A stretch of 63,570 bases of DNA, counting the filler, from Collodictyon triciliatum (lineage: Eukaryota): assembly GCA_043381765.1 (NCBI GenBank). It is 8 parts of 8 records of this genome, joined end to end, with 100 filler letters (N's around TTAATTAATTAA, not from the genome) between each part and the next. Parts side by side here need not be neighbours in the genome. Positions count along the whole stretch, not along the records: positions 1 to 8,052 come from JBHJMP010003610.1; 7 more parts are not named here. One strand, written 5' to 3'. Made by a program: the position numbers and the translations under genes. Below the pieces are notes generated by a model that ran no database searches, was not told where the DNA came from, and was given only the letters and a program-made list of their open reading frames with translations. This document shows positions 1 through 22,916 of the stretch, one piece after another. Position 1 is the first letter of the stretch, and each line of letters opens with the position of its first letter.

Positions 1-70
1 CAAGGTAACTAATAATTAATAAATGAAATAAGAAAAATTTGACCAAAATCATTCCGTTTGGTGGAATATA

Positions 71-3000
71 ATGTCCATTTCAAACCAGATGAAGCTTGCT
101 CGTGAAGACCTGAAGGAGAGACAATACAAGAAGTGGAATCCGGCTCCACAAAGATACCTGACACCGACACCATTGCCGCTCATTGTCTTTGATGAGCGCG
201 TCATCCGTGTTTTCCTTTCGTCGACCTTCCGTGACATGCAGCAAGAAAGAGACGAGTTTTTCAAGAATGGAGCGCCTGAGTTAGTTTAATACATTTTTAT
301 TGTAAATATATAGTAAGGAATGATAATTTGATGTTATTTATTTCCTAACAATATAATTTAATGCCAGGCTGAAAAGGCTTGCGAAATCATTGGGAGTGGA
401 CCTTGTCTTTATCGACTTGCGCTGGGGACTGACTTCTGTGGACAGTAGCGAGGGATGGGTAATTCACAGTATTATTAACATTTTTTTGATAAATTTTTCA
501 TTATACTGCATTTTATAAAATAATGAACTTCAATTTTCTCCCGTTGATTTCAAGGTTGTGATTCGCTGTCTGGACTCCATCGGAAAATGTCCATACTTTG
601 TGTGCTCTCTCGGTGCGCGCTACGGCTGGATTCCTGACCAGAACAAAACGGAGCTGAACAAGCAGGCCCGCCTCGAGGAGCTGCTGAATACCAAGCCTGA
701 TGCCACCATGAAGGATGTCTCTGTGGAATGGCGCAGTGAAACCAACAGCCGCTTCCCATTCATCGACGAAGTGCCTGGGTTGAGTGTCACTGAATACGAG
801 GTGAAGCGAATATCTATATTTTATTCTTTATCTTTTTATGAATGATAATTGAAAAATAAATCAATTATTCTCTAAATTATATATTCATGTTCAGATTCAG
901 TACGCCTGTCTGATTGACAAACCAGCGTGCAGCCGCGCATTCTTCTACCTCCGTGATGAGCACTATGCTGTCGAACATGCCAAGAACGAGGAAGAATGGA
1001 ATCTGTTCCAAGCTGAAAGCGAAGAGGCGGTAAAAATTGATAGAAAGTCTTTAATTTTCTTTTTTATCTTATTATATTACGTTTATTTAATTATTTGATT
1101 TTTTTGACATATATTATAATGTTTTTTTTAGCGTAAGAGGCAGGAGGAGCTCAAACGGAAAGTCAAGGCCAAGTTCGGGCATGTTGTCTACAAGGGAGCG
1201 AAGGAGTATTCGGACTTTGTGACATACCATCTCACCTACGTCATCAAGCGCGACTTTGGGAATCAAACGGTATTTTTATAATTTTTATAGATTTATGAAG
1301 ATAAGTATTGATTGGTGATGTATTGCATTTCATTTACATTTTGTTGGCATAACTATATTTTAGGTGAGAGACCCTGAAGACCAAGCGCAGCACCAGTTTA
1401 AGATGCACCGACTGGCTGGGTTTGGCGGAAGAAAGGATCTTCTCAAGACAATCACGGAGCAAGTAAGATAAAGATCAACTAATTAAAATGACAACAATAC
1501 CCTTTGAATTTTCTTTTCTTATCAATAATTTTTTTTATTAGGCCATGAATCAGCTGAACACCGAGAAATCCAAAATCATCGTTCTTGCTGCCGAGTCTGG
1601 GATTGGAAAGTCGTCGCTCATGGCTGCTACAGTGAGAGACCTCGAAGGGCTGACGCATCCTGGGCTCCATGTCTTTTTCCATTTTGTCGGATGCACTAAT
1701 CTCAGCAACTACGTGGAAAGGTACGTTCTTTTTATTTCTAATTTTAATATATGCTGCAGACATTTTATTTTGGTTTTTCTAAAAATATATTTTTTTTTAT
1801 TTTAGTGTTTCGATTCGCTTCTGGACTTTGGTCGCAAACTCTGCCAACTTTATCGGCCAAAAGAAGCAAGAAGCTGGTATTGTATTTTATTTTACTTTTA
1901 TCTTTTTAATTCAAATTTTGTATAATTCTTCATGCATTTATTTTATTTTTTATCACCAGAATACGAAAAAGAGGGACTGCAGGGCTTGCTGAAGATGATT
2001 CAGGAGAAAAACAAGTAAAAATTTAATTTTTATGTATTTAAATTATAAAATCGAAATTAAAATACATTGAATCGAATAAAAAATTGATATTAAATTATGT
2101 ATATTGTAGGGACAAGAAGTTTGTCTTCCTCATCGATGCCATCAACCAAATCCACCCGTCGCAAGGAACGCCAGCTTCGCATCTGCTGACCTGGTTGCCC
2201 AAAGAAACGCCAGTTAATGTTGCCATGGTTGTGTCGACCATTCATACCCATGAATCTTGCACGGTATTCATCATTTAATATTATTTTTTGGACATGTTTA
2301 TTTTCTGCATAAAAATGATCTGAGTGGAACTTTACTTAATGTATCTGTCACAAGTCTGCCAAGCAAAGTGGACTGGAGCCGATTCCTGTCGCCAAGTTGA
2401 CTGAGGGCGAAATTAAGGATGGTGTCGAATCCTTCCTCATCCGCTATGACAAGACCCTGAACGAAAAGCAAGTTGGAATGATTCTGGCTGACTTGAAATA
2501 TACTGGTGAGACATATTTTTAAAAGAACATATATTTTGATTAATTTTTCAAGGAATGTTCAGTTATTCTTATCCAATATTTTTATAGGCCATCCGCTCTA
2601 TCTCCGCATCATTCTGGATGAAGTCAGGGTCTTTGGCGTCTATGAGAAGCTCGATGAAGAACTGAAAACTCTGCTTTCGACCAATGGAGTCAATGAGCTC
2701 TACACTCTTATTATCCAGCGCTGGCAACTGAAGTTTGACAGGAAGGGTGAGTATTGGTTTCATATTTCACAAAAAAAAATTATTAAAAAAAAACAATGCA
2801 AAGAATTATAATTGCATAATTTGTTGATTGTTTTTTTATTACAGTTTTCTCATCTGATGGAAAAGAGACAATGAAGGTCGAGTATGTCTCCCTCTCGATG
2901 AAGGTTCTCTTTGTTTCCCGCATTGGCCTGAGTGAAGGTGATTTGGACAAGTACATGAAAGATGCGATTGGCACAGGATTCGAGCTTGCTGAATGGTTCG

Positions 3001-6000
3001 CTTACTCTTGAATTTGAACACAATTAATAGGTTTACCTTTTTCTTTTCTTTTCTTTTTTTATTTAACTTATCTTTTATTCATTCAAATAGGAAATCTTTT
3101 TTCTTTACCCTCATCGAGTCGCTTTTCGTCCGTAATGGAAGGTTAGTCTTATTTTGTCAATCCTTTTGTTCGTTAATTCGTGCTTTCGGTACAATTTTAT
3201 TTTGGATAAGAACTAATTATTGTCTATTATAGATACATGTACTTCCACCAACTACTGCTGGAGACCACCAAAAAGGTCTACTTCTCCGAAAACCAGGAGA
3301 TGGGAAAAACCCACGAAAAATACGGAAAATGGCTGTTTGGCCAGTATTCTGAGGCTGCCGACGCTGATGAGGAGCTTACTGCTGAGATCTGCTACCAGCT
3401 TCTGAAGGGCAGTTCGTTTGAATTGCTTGTCGAATACATGAAGCAAAAACATGTAATTTTTTATTTTATGATATGTTCAATTATTTTCAGTCATAATGAA
3501 ACGATTATACTAAATTTTCTTTATATTTCATAGGTTATCAGCATCATGCTCCGTGGTCGCTATCGCTACGAATTCTTTGCATGCTGGAGAGCAATCAACG
3601 CAAGTGGAGTGGCAAACTACAAAGATGCTTATGGAAATTTGGCTAAGGTAATTTGTTGTTTGATTTTATTATTTTGAAGGTTACTACTCACATATTTAAT
3701 TATCAATCATGATTTATCTATTAATTATTTTTTTTTTTTGTTAATTTTCAGTCTTTGGATAAAGTGGGAGACCTGCTGGTTGGATTTTTCTTGGAATCTT
3801 TTGAGAACTCGTTCTTGTTGTCTGTTCTTAATATGCGCCTTGGACAACATCAGACAGAAGGTATGCAATTGTTATTATTTTTTGATGAATTTATGTCATG
3901 AATATGATTTTATATATGGAGACATTCAATAACTATTAATTCATAGATGCGAAGGCTGCTGATTACCTGTATCTTGGCCGTGTCTACAAGAACCTCCAAA
4001 AGTAAAAATAAAAATATATTAATCATATAATTAGGATATGATATGATGTGATGTTTATTATGCAAACTTTTCTAAAATAAAAATAAATTAAATAGCTGGG
4101 CTGAGTCCATGGTCTACTACAAGAAATGTCTCGATTTAGTTGAGAAAAATGAAGATGATTTCCTGCGTATCGCTACCATTCATGAAGAGATGGGAATTAT
4201 CTACCAGCAACAGGATAAGTAAGGCTCGCTTTCAACTGTAAAATAAATTATGCATAATGTTTCAAAAAGGAATTGTTCTGATTTTTTTTATGAAATAGAA
4301 TTGATGAGGCTCTTGATAAATACAAGAAATCCCTGGACTTAAGAATCAAACAGCTGGGCGAGAACGACCTGCAAGTGGCCCAATCACATGACCGCTTCGG
4401 AGACATCTACGTGAATCAGTCAAAGTAATATTTGAACCATTTATATTCGTTAATATTCTGCTTTTTATTTTTAATTATATGTGCTGATCAATTTTTATGA
4501 TAGGAATGAGCAAGCTCTAGATGAATACAAAAAAGCGATGGAAATCCGCCAAAAGAAAGTCGGAAACGAGCATCCCCTTGTCGCAACATCGTACCAGAAC
4601 TATGGCCATGTCTCTCTGGCTGCGAAAAAGTGGCATATTTGTCCATAAAAGGCAGTTTTAAATACAGCTATGATAATTTTGAGAAATATTAATGTGATTG
4701 AATCATCAAGGTATGAAGAGTCTGTTGAAAACTACGAAAAAGCGAAATCCATCCTTGAAAAATCACTGGGAGCTAAGCATGCATCTGTTGCCTCAGCAAT
4801 CCAGTTTATTGCGAACGTTCATCTTGCCAGTGGAAAGTTCGTTTCTAATTTATAGATATTTATATTCAAGACCTTTTATGGTTTTCAATTTCTGCTAAAC
4901 ATATTTGGCTTCATATATTGCATTTGTATGGACTCTATTTGGGGTTAAGATTATGCATAATGTAATTCTAACTAATTAATAAATATCAAGTAACTTTTAC
5001 ATTATATAGGAAAACTGAGGCCTTGTCCTCATTAAAGCAATCGCTGGATATTTTCATATATTCCCTGGGTGAAAACCATCCGAATGTTGTGGCCTGCTAT
5101 GAAATGATTGGAGACATCAGCCATGATTTGAAGGAGTATCTCTTTTTATCAACTATGTTTATATTTTGAATTGAAAAGAATAATTTATTTACCCATATTA
5201 TTCTAGCTTTAAGGGTGCTTTGGATGCTTATACAAAGACGCTGGATATTCGCATGAGAACACAGGGCAAAAAACATCCTGATTATTCAACTACCCTAGAG
5301 AATGTTGGTAGAACAAACTTTGAGCTTAAAAGGTAATTTCTCAATTATGTACAAAAATCGAATATTTTATTAATACTTATAAAAATGCATTGAATAATTA
5401 CTAATGTGCATGAATTAAGATTGGACCAAGTAGTTGAATACTTCCAAATGGCAGCTGCTATCAGAAAGGAGACAAAGACCGTAATGCTAATCAAAGATGG
5501 CTCACAGGTTGATAACATAATTCTCCTCATGAAGGACAAGAAAGAGTATGCTTTAGCAATCCAGCTATACAAAACGCTGATTCATTTATTCAGCAAGCTT
5601 TACTGCATGGATTATCTCGGAATATCGAACAGCTGTGAAGAAATTGACAAGATTTACAAGGAACTGAGGCAGCACAACGAAGCAGTGGCATTCTGGGCTG
5701 AGATGAGAGACAGATTTGCTGGTAAACTCGGATGGATTCATCCCAGAACATTGAATGCATGCGAATACTTGTCCGTCCATTCAAAAGAAATCAGAATCAA
5801 CAAAGAGGCGGTACAGTTCACAAGAGTTAAGGAATTCATTGACGAAACTATTGATGATGCAAAACTAAATGAGGAATGGAATCGTGAGCAAATCATTGCA
5901 TCGTTATTCAGAATTGTCTACATGTCAAAGACAGATGAGAGCAAATCAAAGGCTGCATCTGATGCCATCACACTTTTGAATTTCATGAATGTTTATTTCG

Positions 6001-7694
6001 GTGGAATGGATTTATCAAACATCAAAATTCCACATGCAAATCTTAGTAACTCAATCCTTGATGGTGCAAACCTCACTGGTGCCAACTTGGATGGTGCGGA
6101 TTTTACGAACTCAACGCTTGGTGATTGCGTTTTTGATAATGTGAATATGAGTAATGTGAAATTTGGACTTCTGAATGATAAACTAGAAGGTCATACAAGA
6201 GCTGTCTATAGTGTTTGCAGTATTCAAGGACCGAATGGTGAAAGTTGGCTGGCTTCAGGGAGTGATGATAAAACAATACGTATTTGGGATGCAGCCTCAG
6301 GAAATCAAATCAGAATATTAGGACATACAGATACTGTCAAAAGTGTTTTCAATATTCAAGGGCCAAATGGTAAAAATTGGTTGGCATCTGGAAGCGATGG
6401 TAGAAAAATACGTATTTGGGATGTATCCACAGGAAATCAAATCAAAACATTAGAAGGACATACAAGTGCTGTCTGGAGTGTATGCAGTATTCAAGGACCG
6501 AATGGTGAAAGTTGGTTGGCTTCTGGAGGTCGTGATAACATGATACAGATTTTGGATATAGCCACAGGAAACCAAATCAAAAAATTAAGAGGTCATACAA
6601 GTTTTGTTTATAGTATTTGCAGTATGCATGGGCCGAATGGTGAAAAGTGGCTGGCTTCTGGAAGTCGTGATAATACAATACGCATTTGGGATATATCTAC
6701 AGGAAAACAAATCAAAACATTACAAGGTCATACAGATGAAGTCAATAGTGTTTGCAGCATTCAAGGACCGAATGGTGAAAATTGGCTGGCTTCTGGAAGT
6801 GGTAGTGACTATCAAAGTCAAGATAAGACAATACGTATTTGGGATGTAGCCACAGGAAAGGAAATCAAAAAATTAGCAGGTCATACAAGGGAAGTCAAAA
6901 GTCTTTGCAGTATGCATGGGCCGAATGGTGAAAGTTGGTTGGCTTCTGGAAGTCGTGATAAAACAATACGTATTTGGGATGTAACCACAGGACATCAAAT
7001 CAAAACATTACAAGGTCATACAGATTGGGTCAATAGTGTTTGCAGCATTCAAGGACAGAATGGTGAAAATTGGCTGGCTTCTGGAAGTGGTAGTGACTTT
7101 GGAAGTCAAGATAGCACAATACGTGTTTGGAATGTAGCCACAGGAAACCAAATCAAAACATTAGAAGGTCATACAAGCGAAGTCACCAGTGTTTGCAGCA
7201 TTCAAGGACCGAGTAGTGAAAAGTGGTTGGCTTCTGGAAGTCGTGATAACACAATACGTATTTGGGATGTAGCCACAGGAAACCAAACGCACAGCCTGCA
7301 AAAGTCAGAAGTGACCTACACCCAAGGAAAATACCTCGTCAAGAAAGAAAAGCCAGACGAAGTCATCGCAGTATTCAACAGAACAAGTGACGCGATGAAT
7401 ATGATTGACACCAACAGAATCCAGGATGCAAAGACTGTCCAGATTATCGGCCCAAGAAAGCTGCAAGGTGGAAACATCCAAATCAGAAATGTCATGGGAT
7501 TGAATGAATTAAACAAATCCCTCCTACTTTCTATCGGTGCTGCTTCCTTTGATGCGGACTTTGCTGTCTATTGTGAGCAGGGTGAGTTCACCATGTTCCA
7601 GGCTCAAATGATGGCTGAGTGCTATGAGAATGGATGGGGTGTTGAGAAGGACACCGAGAAAGCAGCTGAGTGGAGACAGAAAGCCTCAGCTTGA
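71..7694 (+). CDS. NLR-like STAND NTPase: DUF4062 - NACHT/AAA-type NTPase - TPR repeats - pentapeptide repeats - 8x WD40 - C-terminal Sel1-like repeat; about 24 GT-AG introns, terminal exon 5420-7694
   Basis: Spliced translation gives RVFLSSTFRDMQQERD...FIDLRWG...CPYFVCSLGARYGW (DUF4062), Walker A AESGIGKSS (~1590-1615), Walker B FVFLIDAINQ, GHPLYLRIILDEVRVFG, kinesin-light-chain-like TPRs (LGENDLQVAQSH, VGNEHPLVATSY, LGAKHASVAS, LGENHPNVV), ANLSNSILDGANLTGANLDGADF, GH...WD repeats and AECYENGWGVEKDTEKAAEW. Every exon join I checked keeps frame. Confidence 0.9.
6181..7290 (+). repeat. Tandem array of 8 highly similar coding WD40 units (~135 nt; units 5 and 7 carry an 18-nt insertion)
   Basis: Near-identical nucleotide blocks recur (ggtcatac...tgcagtattcaaggaccgaatggtgaaa...tggctggcttctggaagt...acaatacgtatttgggatgta) and encode LxGHTxxVxSVCSIQGPNGExWLASGSxDxTIRIWD. 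Confidence 0.95.
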
Positions 7695-8052
7695 CAAGGT
7701 AAGTAGTATTATAAATGCATATTAATGCATGTTCGTTAACTGTAATCATTTTAGATGGAGAGATTCTCTGGGTTTTTTTCAAGCAGACCTTCGCTTTTTT
7801 CCCACAAGGACACTCCATGAAAACAAAATAAACCCTTAAAAATGAAAGCAAGGCTGATCGATCTCGGTTGCGTCTTTTTTCTTTTTTCTTTTTTCTTTTT
7901 TCTTTTTTCTTTTTTCTTTTTTCTTTTTTCTTTTTTCTTTTTTCTTTTTTCTTTTTTCTCTTTTCTTTTTTCTTTTTTCTTTTTTCTTTTCTTTTTTCTT
8001 TTTTCTTTTTTCTTTTTTCTTTTTTCTTTTTTCTTTTTTCTTTTTTCTTTTT

Positions 8053-19500: not shown

Positions 19501-22500
19501 GAGGTGCGAGATATTAACTCAAGATTTGGTACACACTTTATAGGCACTTTGCAGAGTTATCATGCAAAAGGCGCGAGAACTTTTAAAGGCAGATAGGTGC
19601 ACTTTGTTTTTAGTTGACCAGGTAAATGTTGACAGAGAATCTAACAGTGCTCCGTTCAATACTTTCTTTTACTTTGTGCGCACGGCCCCAAATTTCCCAA
19701 TCATGTATTCCACTGGTCGTTTGATCCTTTTCATAGATATTTTACTCATTACTAAGAATTGTATATCAGGAAAGAAAAGAACTGTGGTCCCAGGTGGCTG
19801 AAGGTGCTGCCGAAATTCGTTTTCCCATGAATCTTGGAATTGCTGGTCATGTTGCAACATCAGGCGAAACATTGAACATCCCTGAGGCCTACGAAGATAC
19901 TCGATTCAATCCCGAAATCGACCGAAAAACAGGTAAGATGTTCTATCACATGAGATTATATTGATTATGATTAAGACGGCTATCACCATTGGCAGTATGC
20001 GAAAGATGATGAGCCTTTTTTTTTTGTGGGCATTCAAACCGGTGTTATGTTTTACTGATATTGCCAAACTTACTAGGCTATCGAACGAAAACGATTCTTT
20101 GCATGCCCATCATCAATCCGATGCAGCAGAAAATTGTTGGGGTCACTCAAATGATAAACAAGGTATCAAAATTTTAATTTTAATTTTATTTCTTTTCTTG
20201 TTTTATTTTTTTCGAAATTAAGTTTGCTGATCTTGCTAATTGTAGTTGAGTGGACAGAAATTTGATGATGTTGATGAAGATTTGCTTCAGGCATTCAGCG
20301 CTCAGGTTTGTTTAATCATTCTGTCCAATGAAAGCAAAGAACATTTTTATGCGTGCAAATACGCAAAACATTTTGTCATAGTTTTATGTTTCTTAAGGCT
20401 GGTGTTGCAATCGAAAATTCAATTTCTTTCGGGGAATCTATCAAAGCCAGAACCCATTTGCAACAAGTGAGTTTCCATACTTTGACGGTTTGAAAAGGGT
20501 CGAAAATGAAAATCAAGGGAGCTTGCATCATTGTCCTTTATATATTCAAGACGTGAAGGATGCAGCAGTTTAATAGTTCGTCTGTAGGTTTTGGGGAGTA
20601 TAACGAGTTTGGTGATCAATTTGAAGGGAGATGGCAAGCTCTACACATCGAACAAGCCGCCGGATTCAATCTTGGGTGTTAGTGAAGAAATGATGAAAGT
20701 CAATGTGTACACGGAATGGATGGGCACATTGAACAAGGTAATTCGCGCTGATTTGAAACTATAGAACAATATCATTTTTTCTCTCTTTTCACTTTTCTGT
20801 ATTTTTCCTCTTTTTTCCTCTTTTTTCCTCTTTTTTCCTCTTTTTTCCTCTTTTTTCCTCTTTTTTCCTCTTTTTCTCTTTTTCTCTTTTTTCTCTATTT
20901 TTCTCTATTTTTCTCTATTTTTCTCTATTTTTCTCTATTTTTCTCTATTTTTCTCTATTTTTCTCTATTTTTCTCTATTTTTCTCTATTTTTCTCTATTT
21001 TTCTCTATTTTCTGCTATTTTTAACTTTTTTTTTTCAAAATTATTAATTAGGTGATGATGGATGACATTACAAGCGTCCTTGAAACCCACAACCCTGTTA
21101 ACTCTGGGGATTATATATACACTCTTCCGAACCAAGCGGCCGTAACAAAGACAATTACATATAGCATCGTCCCACTTCGAAATAAGGTTACCTTGTTTTT
21201 TTTTCTGTATATCAACATAGTGTTTGAGTAGAGCTGATCGGGAAGAATTACAAAAATGGAGACATTTGCCTGTGGAATTAACTGTTTTGCTTTGAAAATC
21301 ACTAGGAGGACGGAATTGTGTTGATTGTTAATGACATTACCCATGAAACAAAGTAAGTACACGTACTAAAATTTTTAGAACTTTATCGTGGCGTAAAGAT
21401 TTGAATGATAATATGAATTTTGTTTTGTTTGTGTATAGGTTGAAAAACACTCTGTCGCGCTACATGTCACCGGCTCTTGCACAAGAAGTGATGAAGGATG
21501 GAAGCCTGAAACTTGGAGGAAAGTCCCAAAAGGTATTCTTTCTTTGGCTTCTTTTATCTGGGTGAGACAGCCAAGAATGAAAGTTTTATTTTCTATCAAT
21601 TCCACCTGTTTTTTTTTTCTTATTTTTTGCTTCTTATTTCTTACCCGTTATGTATCATATGGGCTGTATATTTCACTTTTAGTGGAGAAGGAACGCTTGA
21701 GCTTGTGTAAGATTGAAGCATCAACTTACCATGTTTTATTCTTGATTTTTTATGATTGTTCGTATTATCATTTTTTTAGTTGTATATGCCTTTTTTTTTT
21801 TTTTTGAGATAAGGCTGTTCTAATTGCCCGGTTTTATAGACGAATGGAAATAATTTTCAGTCTAATGATACGTCCGAATTTGATATGAATGTTGAATAAT
21901 GACAACCTTCATGTGAAGCATACGTACTTGCTTGATATTCCTATATATTTACTCATATAGAAACAAAACAAAACAATAATATTTTCAGGTGACCATCGTA
22001 TTCTCAGACATTCGCAAATTCACATCCCTCAGTGAGGGAATGACAGCCACCAAAGTCGTCGACATGCTGAATGAATACTTCTCTAGCATGGTTCATGAGG
22101 TCTTTAATGAAAACGGCGTTTTGGACAAATATATCGGTGAGCGTTGAAAGCATCACAATCACACTCATTACAATCATTACAATCATCACAATCATCACAA
22201 TCATCACAATCATCACAATCATCACAATCATCACAATCATCACAATCATCACAATCATCACAATCATCAAAGGGGATGCATTGATGGCTGTGTGGGGCGT
22301 GCCTGTCCTCCACGGAGACGACGCCATCCGTGCGTGTCGCACAGCCGTGAGGATGATAATCAGTCTGAACGCCCTCAACGAAGTCCGAGCCGGCCGCGGA
22401 GAAATGCCCATCAAAATCGGGATTGGACTCAACACTGGGATGGTAGTGAGCGGGAACATCGGCTCGGAGAAGCGGCTGGAATACACGGTGATTGGAGACG

Positions 22501-22916
22501 GCGTGAATCTCGCATCGCGCATCGAGGGCGCCACAAAGTACTACGGCGTCTCCATCCTCATCAGCGAGTTCACGTATCTGGAGCTGCAGGAGCACGGGCA
22601 TGCGCAGGACTTTGTTGTGCGGGACCTGGACCTTGTGCGGGTGGTTGGGAAGAAGCAGCCGATCCGGATATACGAGCTGCTTGGATCCGTGGATTATCCG
22701 CCCTCCGAGCCGCGGGTGCGGGTCTCTGCCCTCTTCGCCCAAGGGCTGCAGCTCTACCGCTCGTGCCGCTTCGAAGCCGCATCGGACATGTTCCGCAAAG
22801 GCCTGCAGATTCAGCATGACCGGCCGTGCGAGATGTTTCTCGAGAGATGCATGCAGTTTCTTGCGCAGCCGCCTGCGCCCGAGTGGGACGGAGTCTGGGA
22901 CATGGACGAGAAGTAG
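16524..22916 (+). CDS. Class III adenylyl cyclase, GAF-GAF-PAS-cyclase-TPR (CyaB1-like); 5' end truncated by contig edge, multi-exon
   Basis: GAF motifs [53 protein letters not shown] and INK...FDDVDE. PAS/linker [19 protein letters not shown]. Cyclase [40 protein letters not shown]-terminal TPR and [10 protein letters not shown]. Confidence 0.92.
22151..22268. repeat. (ATCACA)n microsatellite filling the last intron of the cyclase gene
   Basis: Lies between donor GTGAGC (22137) and the AAG acceptor (22272); splicing restores DKYIG|DALMA. Confidence 0.93.

Follow-up and report, generated by a model that had tools for sequence, protein, structure and literature searches.

The window analysed here, a stretch of 63,570 nucleotides composed of contigs of Collodictyon triciliatum (GCA_043381765.1) joined end to end, contains in its first part (contig C3610, positions 1-8052; the other parts come from different contigs) a STAND (NLR-like) gene with the domain order DUF4062/TeTIR, NACHT, TPR, pentapeptide repeats, eight WD40 repeats, tail and Sel1-like repeat (Table 1). 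The WD40 array lies inside the 2,275-bp last exon. The gene model is incomplete at the 5′ end, with a donor site at base 5 and the remaining 5′ end beyond the contig; in one paralogue (L021:247-1197), extra 5′ exons that, by eye, resemble a calponin-homology (CH) domain precede DUF4062. The intron at 5333-5419 corresponds to a GT..AG joint in contigs of related material from run X4, and the joints that delineate the 3′-UTR intron come from contigs of relatives or paralogues, other than the contig's own allele, in three sequencing runs, of which X5 is an RNA library and X1 and X4 are guessed to be RNA. Spliced members of the family are present in three of the four runs examined.

Table 1. Features of the C3610 gene, in positions of the window.
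Feature	Position	Strand	Details
STAND (NLR-like) gene	89..7694	+	25 exons, 1798 aa modelled; 24/24 introns GT-AG, frame open
DUF4062/TeTIR TIR-like domain	206..915	+	exons 1-4; F42, R48, R54, R82-W83-G84, C99, R116, SVTEYE motif
NACHT-type NTPase	1364..2746	+	Walker A AESGIGKS 1590-1613; Walker B FLIDAIN, exon 10
TPR array	3947..5795	+	five 126-bp exons, then TPR-like helices opening the last exon
Helical linker and pentapeptide repeats	5907..6179	+	Pfam Pentapeptide E 1.7e-21; 5′ flank of the array, class-specific
WD40 array, eight units	6180..7292	+	one open frame; hypervariable unit positions 7, 8, 10, 29, 31
WD40 unit 1	6180-6311	+	44 aa
WD40 unit 2	6312-6446	+	45 aa
WD40 unit 3	6447-6581	+	45 aa
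WD40 unit 4	6582-6716	+	45 aa
WD40 unit 5	6717-6869	+	51 aa
WD40 unit 6	6870-7004	+	45 aa
WD40 unit 7	7005-7157	+	51 aa
WD40 unit 8	7158-7292	+	45 aa
Higher-order duplication, units 4-5 and 6-7	6582..7157	+	88.5% identity; TRF 288-bp period
6-codon insertion, unit 5 b-c (top-face) loop	6801..6818	+	
6-codon insertion, unit 7 b-c loop	7089..7106	+	homologous insertion in contig C10155 unit 6
C-terminal tail with one Sel1-like repeat (7608-7688)	7293..7691	+	Pfam Sel1 E 3.7e-6, under cut-off
3′-UTR intron	7699..7754	+	GT..AG joint, 56 bases skipped, runs X1, X4, X5

Most of the Pfam scores along the gene fall under the cut-off because the exons were scanned one by one: DUF4062 is matched with E-values of 3e-4 and 4e-5 (single exons, under the curated cut-off), the NACHT region weakly matches NPHP3_N, AAA_16 and NACHT (exons taken singly), and TPR_12 and TPR_10 remain under the cut-off on single exons. 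The 126-bp TPR exons (4299-5332) encode one 42-aa repeat each and are separated by introns mostly of phase 2 (on both sides of four of the five exons in the final model); with such matching introns, exon shuffling would be possible. At least two mix-and-match types exist of the TPR segment that opens the last exon, and paralogues L034, L035, L063, L074 and L075 carry it in duplicate. The possibility that the TPR region is a second hypervariable sensor was rejected, with pN/pS of 0.26 in the exons and 0.44 in the last-exon part and no excess (the per-codon values are unreliable, the DNA alignment being garbled); outside the WD40 array, pN/pS ranges from 0.15 to 0.44. A search for homologues with the TPR-linker region retrieved pentapeptide proteins only.

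The DUF4062/TeTIR domain is described in two preprints as a TIR-like NADase, the expression of which depletes NAD and kills cells, and bacterial DUF4062 counters phage (bioRxiv 10.64898/2026.09.21.753143, 10.64898/2026.05.01.722283). In the C3610 protein, F42, R48, R54, R82, W83, C99 and R116 occupy the exact offsets of F902, R908, R914, R942, W943, C959 and R976 of TEP1; judging by this correspondence, substrate residues of the NADase type appear to be in place. The direct match to TEP1 (chain 11gz_A) is weak (E 1.8 and 0.2), and the alignments stop short of the TEYE region. Within the SVTEYE-type motif, TEYE is invariant in eight paralogues and probably includes the catalytic glutamate, which we take, from the family motif, to be the counterpart of TEP1 E1008.

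When the WD40 units are numbered such that the H of GH is position 5, the two residues after GHT read RA/DT/SA/SF/DE/RE/DW/SE and the residue after V reads Y/K/W/Y/N/K/N/T across the eight units, exactly as listed in an earlier note on this DNA. The same note described the units as near-identical and units 4-5 and 6-7 as a higher-order duplication. The eight repeats and the duplication are real (33 of 288 positions differ between the two copies, and units 5 and 7, both with the 6-codon insertion, are 91.5% identical); near-identity is too strong a term for pairwise identities of 75-91% at the nucleotide level and 59-82% at the amino acid level, the latter being under the 85% HiC threshold of Dyrka 2014. 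Both insertions fall in the b-c loop, which belongs to the top face of WD40 propellers (Wu 2012, PMC3419727). Variation within the array is uneven: 25 of the 60 non-majority residues are located in five of the 39 columns, compared to 7.7 expected for an even spread (p 2.6e-8, binomial; these columns had been picked from the family pool that includes the C3610 units). It is also largely non-synonymous at these columns, with 7 synonymous and 112 non-synonymous pairwise codon differences, versus 114 and 213, respectively, elsewhere. In the AlphaFold2 (single-sequence) model, pLDDT is mostly 80-92 over the array, and the top Foldseek match is the 8-bladed propeller Tako8 (TMt 0.89); the array is accordingly predicted to be an eight-blade propeller.

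The unit recurs across the genome, on at least 92 contigs and behind two types of NACHT. At approximately 80%, the C3610 array has matches on at least 40 other contigs, and an 18-mer from its tail is found at 46 genomic places. Combining 56 distinct contigs that contain the unit with 40 additional loci reached via the DUF4062 exon (138 matches; WD units in 36 of the 40) yields 783 ungapped, stop-free units; the numbers of contigs and units are lower bounds, some contigs may be alleles, and in an assembly fragmented into 14,576 contigs, chimeric arrays or the presence of several strains are possible. From the 554 units of the first 56 contigs, the 512 that measured 135 nt were considered, of which 11 with stops and others lacking an in-register GH were dropped, leaving 465 units in which G4 and H5 are invariant by construction. 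No two of the 465 units are the same, and the median difference from the nearest neighbour is 8.9%. The number of repeats varies from 3 to 17 in 48 complete arrays (16 at 7 and 6 at 14; the commonest numbers are 7, 8, 14 and 13) and from 3 to 21 among paralogue arrays overall, and b-c loop insertions of 6-8 aa are recurrent (10 units in the first 56 contigs and three more in the later loci).

The genes in this pool fall into two classes. Class A comprises genes like the C3610 gene, and class B consists of long intronless ORFs (27 matches, 19 of these at 76% or higher) encoding proteins that start with a low-complexity and a helical region, in which Pfam detects no effector domain. Eight further long intronless ORFs (C5304, C1564, C1182, C4086, C1329, C1995, C4246 and C4143) encode a distant NACHT of the class B type, with 31-40% identity. 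A recent graft of the class B cassette onto class A was considered and rejected: of 40 additional class A loci, 36 have the cassette, even where DUF4062 identity is as low as 39-60%, as do the homologues from Diphylleia rotans; of the other four loci, three end before the region, leaving only L081 without it. A quick tree of the pentapeptide repeats groups class B (98), with 52 of 68 branches open, and indicates no direction of transfer.

In the 465-unit pool, entropy is highest at positions 29 (3.81 bits), 8 (3.74), 10 (3.21), 7 (3.06) and 31 (2.26), over a scaffold with pN of 0.093 and pS of 0.232. Positions 8, 10 and 29, the three most variable of the pool, are the known top-face hotspots R1-2, R1 and D-1 when assigned with the sequence rule given in Wu 2012 (PMC3419727). 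The variation is thus concentrated, non-synonymous and on the top face, contrary to the even, mostly synonymous spread off a single face that the earlier note had named as refuting its idea. The codons reported to be under selection in Podospora form two pairs around a conserved residue (Paoletti 2007, PMC1805685) and, by spacing, would correspond here to 8/10 and 29/31. At positions 7, 8, 10 and 29, the first two codon bases have a diversity of 0.61, compared to 0.175 at 16 four-fold third positions of the scaffold, and within-amino-acid synonymous diversity is low at position 8 (0.15) and position 29 (0.27) but high at position 10 (0.60, n=68). Codons for four-fold amino acids at positions 8 and 29 keep T as their last base (for example, GGT in 58 of 59 glycine and GCT in 53 of 56 alanine codons). 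Given this low synonymous diversity, local hypermutation does not account for the variation at 8 and 29. A DGR-like targeted hypermutation that writes the variable codons would be compatible with the restriction of variation to a few codons and the near saturation of their first two positions, but the constancy of the third base and the variation of all four bases at positions 1-2, with no sign of an adenine-only rule, speak against it, and it is regarded as very improbable.

A site-wise codon grid (beta>alpha with a site-specific synonymous rate) was applied to two FastTree trees. An excess of dN over dS, which the earlier note had suggested computing for each codon, is found at positions 8 (2dLL 52 and 50) and 29 (22 and 53) and is not obtained at 7, 10 and 31. 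Position 39, which is no top-face hotspot, also passes, although more weakly (14 and 10), making visible the risk of false positives of a tree method under recombination; because recombination violates the tree, the tree-free comparison of diversities carries more weight. dN>dS at positions 8 and 29 is regarded as shown.

Several observations indicate that units have been exchanged between loci. The scaffold distance is 0.098 within a gene, 0.106 when genes are compared and 0.101 when class A is compared with class B, whereas the flanks of the two classes diverge by 0.375 (5′) and 0.337, with a sharp WD40/flank boundary at the first GH on the 5′ side (in an ungapped flank profile, which overstates the flank value). 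A 7-codon loop insertion, with 17 of 18 nt of the core identical, is common to class A contig C6159 and class B contig C5557. The similarity of the scaffold, the dissimilarity of the flanks and the insertion shared across the classes together point to exchange between loci. Furthermore, of the 145 hexamers formed by codons 7-8, 38 are common to the two classes (38-45 shared alleles per variable patch), and one class A and one class B unit have in common an exact 40-nt tract with eight non-consensus bases. The nearest neighbour of a unit is in the same gene in 16.6% of the cases, compared to 1.9% expected, and when in another gene, it comes from the opposite class in 35%; exact tracts of at least 100 nt join different loci. 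All four gametes are found in 1005 of 1035 site pairs, a pattern that can be produced by recurrent mutation as well; r2 approaches the null past 12 nt, and mutual information between position 7 or 8 and position 29 shows no excess in the 465-unit pool. Thus, the variable patches associate freely; exchange is probably still ongoing.

The main competing scenario posits a single recent amplification of the unit and one transfer of an array between classes A and B, followed by a radiation with independent divergence, the top face being unconstrained or selected episodically and exchange having ceased. The star-like distances, with the within-gene distance about twice the distance to the medoid, fit this scenario, as does the 'age' of class A WD units, which follows the divergence of the flanks (Spearman -0.81 versus flank identity, n=63). 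Moreover, flank depth within class A (0.085-0.105) and within class B (0.077-0.099) equals that of the WD scaffold, so that the within-class data do not require ongoing exchange, and an amplification with one transfer and subsequent radiation explains part of the pattern. However, diversity of the non-synonymous kind at positions 8 and 29 is several times what the synonymous clock gives, an excess that relaxation cannot produce; the introns differ from those of 19 paralogues by only 0.15-0.26; and the alleles found per patch in both classes outnumber the capacity of one ancestral array, which favours more than one event, with a contribution of recurrent mutation. The excess of same-gene nearest neighbours and the long exact tracts between loci likewise argue against independent divergence alone, so this scenario appears unlikely as a full account.

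The degree of homogenisation differs among genes, with the distance to the pool medoid ranging from 0.034 to 0.47 per gene and tracking flank divergence in class A. The C3610 array is only moderately homogenised (0.152 within the gene and 0.093 to the medoid), which speaks against the favoured recombination within and between genes; the gene is at the margin of the homogeneous group, on the diverged side, with an internal duplication of its own. Sequence-dependent conversion with gradual escape would yield such a gradient. Four loci, L067, L070, L071 and L077, have diverged arrays whose units differ from the pool medoid by 0.27-0.39 but whose majority sequence agrees with it at four-fold sites (0-1 differences of 13-15), giving the impression of a pool centre that hardly moves at silent sites.

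Could the mosaic structure be, to a large extent, an artefact of short-read assembly or of mixed strains, such that the genes are actually fewer and less shuffled? Many of the contigs end inside arrays, and Illumina assemblies have been reported to fail on HiC WD40 alleles (Ament-Velasquez 2025). The units, however, are all distinct and far enough from their nearest neighbours for k-mer resolution, and the shuffling occurs within the 135-nt unit, that is, below read length. In addition, a 151-nt record from run X2, which may be the source sample although its cover of the gene is scant, matches positions 7109-7259 exactly, across the joint of units 7 and 8. An artefactual origin of the mosaic is therefore viewed as quite improbable. 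In the reads, which the earlier note had suggested as a source of allele variation, no run contains half of the words and the run contigs are paralogues or relatives, so that differences or joints within the array in such contigs are no evidence of polymorphism. Contigs C2032 (L071) and C3072 (L072; C3072:1000-6262) share approximately 5.2 kb without a mismatch, introns included, are 95-98% alike upstream and differ in their last exons (13 and 8 WD units, respectively), which may be due to collapse during assembly or, alternatively, to a conversion or cassette swap that took place very recently.

Among known systems, the closest analogue in terms of diversification is the HNWD/NWD family of Podospora (HET-D, HET-E, HET-R; PMC1805685, PMC12222747, PMC4986451), in which a NACHT is likewise combined with a WD40 sensor. 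The repeats are homogenised within and between loci and across NACHT clades in both cases (here as deduced from one assembly), repeat number is variable (here among paralogues), and the four selected codons of Podospora correspond in spacing to positions 8, 10, 29 and 31, all highly variable, of which 8 and 29 alone pass the dN>dS test. The description of the array as HET-E/HNWD-like thus holds as an analogy and not as membership in HNWD: the N-terminal exons contain no HET domain detectable by Pfam, with DUF4062 matched instead, and the internal identity is too low for the HNWD level of more than 80-85% aa. The HET domain is replaced by DUF4062/TeTIR in class A and by no recognised domain in class B; the NACHT of the C3610 gene, recognised by both Walker motifs (A and B) and by weak matches in Pfam, is of a different type; and TPR and pentapeptide repeats are inserted between NACHT and WD40, with Sel1 repeats following the latter. 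The unit here is 45 aa long, with a median internal amino acid identity of 0.76 (range 0.53-0.83, n=49 genes) versus approximately 0.85 in Podospora, and the pool is far larger (at least 92 loci and 783 units, compared to 10 loci and 69 units). The repeats are not differentiated by gene here, whereas most Podospora paralogues are (PMC12222747), and the long b-c loop insertions are unlike the NWD repeats as described for Podospora.

By its head and NACHT, the C3610 gene belongs with the TeTIR/DUF4062-NACHT STAND family (TEP1, NWD1, NWD2, TTC41, NPHP3), as judged from architecture and apparent substrate residues: NACHT is immediately preceded by the TIR-like domain, F, R, RWG, C and R occur at TEP1 spacing, and the C-terminal part is made of repeats. 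Members described in the two preprints carry WD40 or TPR, whereas the C3610 gene has both, along with pentapeptide and Sel1 repeats, and the available portions of the preprints make no mention of a homogenised hypervariable propeller in a large expanded family. The class B NACHT, in turn, is about 30% identical to those of Arm-NACHT-pentapeptide-WD40 proteins of Mortierellaceae, Mycoavidus and Hexamita, which contain the same pentapeptide-WD40 module; in two Mycoavidus proteins, the repeats also resemble one another (0.57 and 0.68 aa). The C3610 gene differs from these in its NACHT, the TPRs before the module and the Sel1 tail, and the sharing of one WD unit by two NACHT chassis distinguishes C. 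triciliatum from them.

The three best homologues of the family are proteins of D. rotans (EukProt P0250-P0252) with the same module order and the same kind of WD unit (GPNGE-type); P0251 and the C3610 protein share 48% identity over aa 9-1719. Together with an adenylate/guanylate cyclase encoded on a different contig of the window, which is 74% identical to its D. rotans counterpart, these homologues mark the host as related to Diphylleia. The repeats in these proteins are degenerate (internal amino acid identity 0.27-0.43), like those of old paralogues here, in a comparison limited to three cluster representatives from a transcriptome assembly that may miss homogenised arrays. The C3610 array is only moderately repetitive, with several pairs under 0.7, in comparison with the young, similar propellers of HR WD40 proteins that are found in bacteria, fungi and about 2% of protist and fungal WD40 proteins (Hu 2017, PMC5587647), for which the accessible parts of that study report neither a shared pool nor site-specific selection. 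Among the entries listed in literature searches, no paper on this family in collodictyonids was found.

Given the observed architecture, pooling of units and positions of variation, the preferred reading, to which we assign a probability of about two in three, is that the array is the putative eight-blade sensor of an intracellular STAND receptor, with blades pooled genome-wide and the top face under diversifying selection, and that the NADase is switched on by a parasite protein. Gene conversion and unequal crossing-over, both inside genes and from one gene to another, would maintain a similar scaffold while shuffling the variable patches, the top-face residues would be subject to diversifying selection, and the 6-8 aa loop insertions would provide a further type of variation. 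Binding of a ligand by the propeller would release NACHT, which would then oligomerise and turn on the TIR-like NADase, resulting in NAD depletion or cell death directed against an intracellular parasite (a virus or a bacterium); all steps after ligand binding are modelled on STAND biology and the two TeTIR preprints. The suggestion in the earlier note that the array is a recombination-diversified recognition surface is supported by the non-synonymous variation at the top face and the strong signals of recombination in the pool, the surface itself remaining putative.

A diversified repertoire could also serve self/non-self or kin recognition, control of symbionts or sensing of prey, and class B might signal in a different way. 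The HNWD genes of Podospora act in allorecognition (PMC1805685, PMC12222747, PMC4986451), and class B has neither the DUF4062 head nor a Pfam effector. Against such roles stand the NAD depletion and cell killing by TeTIR and the anti-phage activity of bacterial DUF4062 reported in the preprints, and hypervariability at the hotspots in a big family would suit an arms race; a function other than defence against parasites is thus considered rather remote.

If the defence reading is correct, diversification of receptors of the HET-E type arose again in a distant lineage of eukaryotes, at the same top-face positions and on a larger scale, and a diversified propeller became coupled to a TIR-like NADase in a freshwater flagellate. 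The surprise is limited, as the mechanism of diversification is already known from fungi; what is new is the pooled, cross-class test of WD40 units behind two types of NACHT. The family would then provide a natural panel of sensors with which to find out how TeTIR STAND proteins are activated, and would bear on the question whether unicellular eukaryotes run immunity of the NLR type. More tentatively, and with lower confidence than the reading itself, one might envisage a CRuMs predator equipped with a genome-wide library of some 800 or more interchangeable sensor blades, variable at hotspot residues and with CDR-like loop insertions, on two NACHT chassis of different origin, one of them NADase-armed, in which cassettes are still swapped behind identical signalling halves (C2032/C3072), a repertoire of independent origin about ten times the size of the fungal one.

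Several variants of the architecture are present among the paralogues. In C2561 (L025:1270-9498), a class B NACHT-pentapeptide-WD40-Sel1 protein continues in frame into a second helical region and NACHT, and in C1605 (L081:5889-7004), a class A gene without the pentapeptide-WD40 cassette, the TPRs are directly joined to Sel1-like repeats. The number of tandem Sel1-like repeats 3′ of the WD array ranges from one in the C3610 gene to more than 20 in L036, and such repeats are also found in L059, L029 and others; they look internally conserved and make up a second array that is variable. C4628 (L033), with stop codons in six units, is likely a pseudogene, and occasional units with stops or frameshifts occur in C10703, C2371, C7979, C10618, C14071 and C7767. 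Elsewhere in the window, on another contig, positions 22071-22916 contain an exon of an adenylate/guanylate cyclase that is 74% identical to a D. rotans protein.
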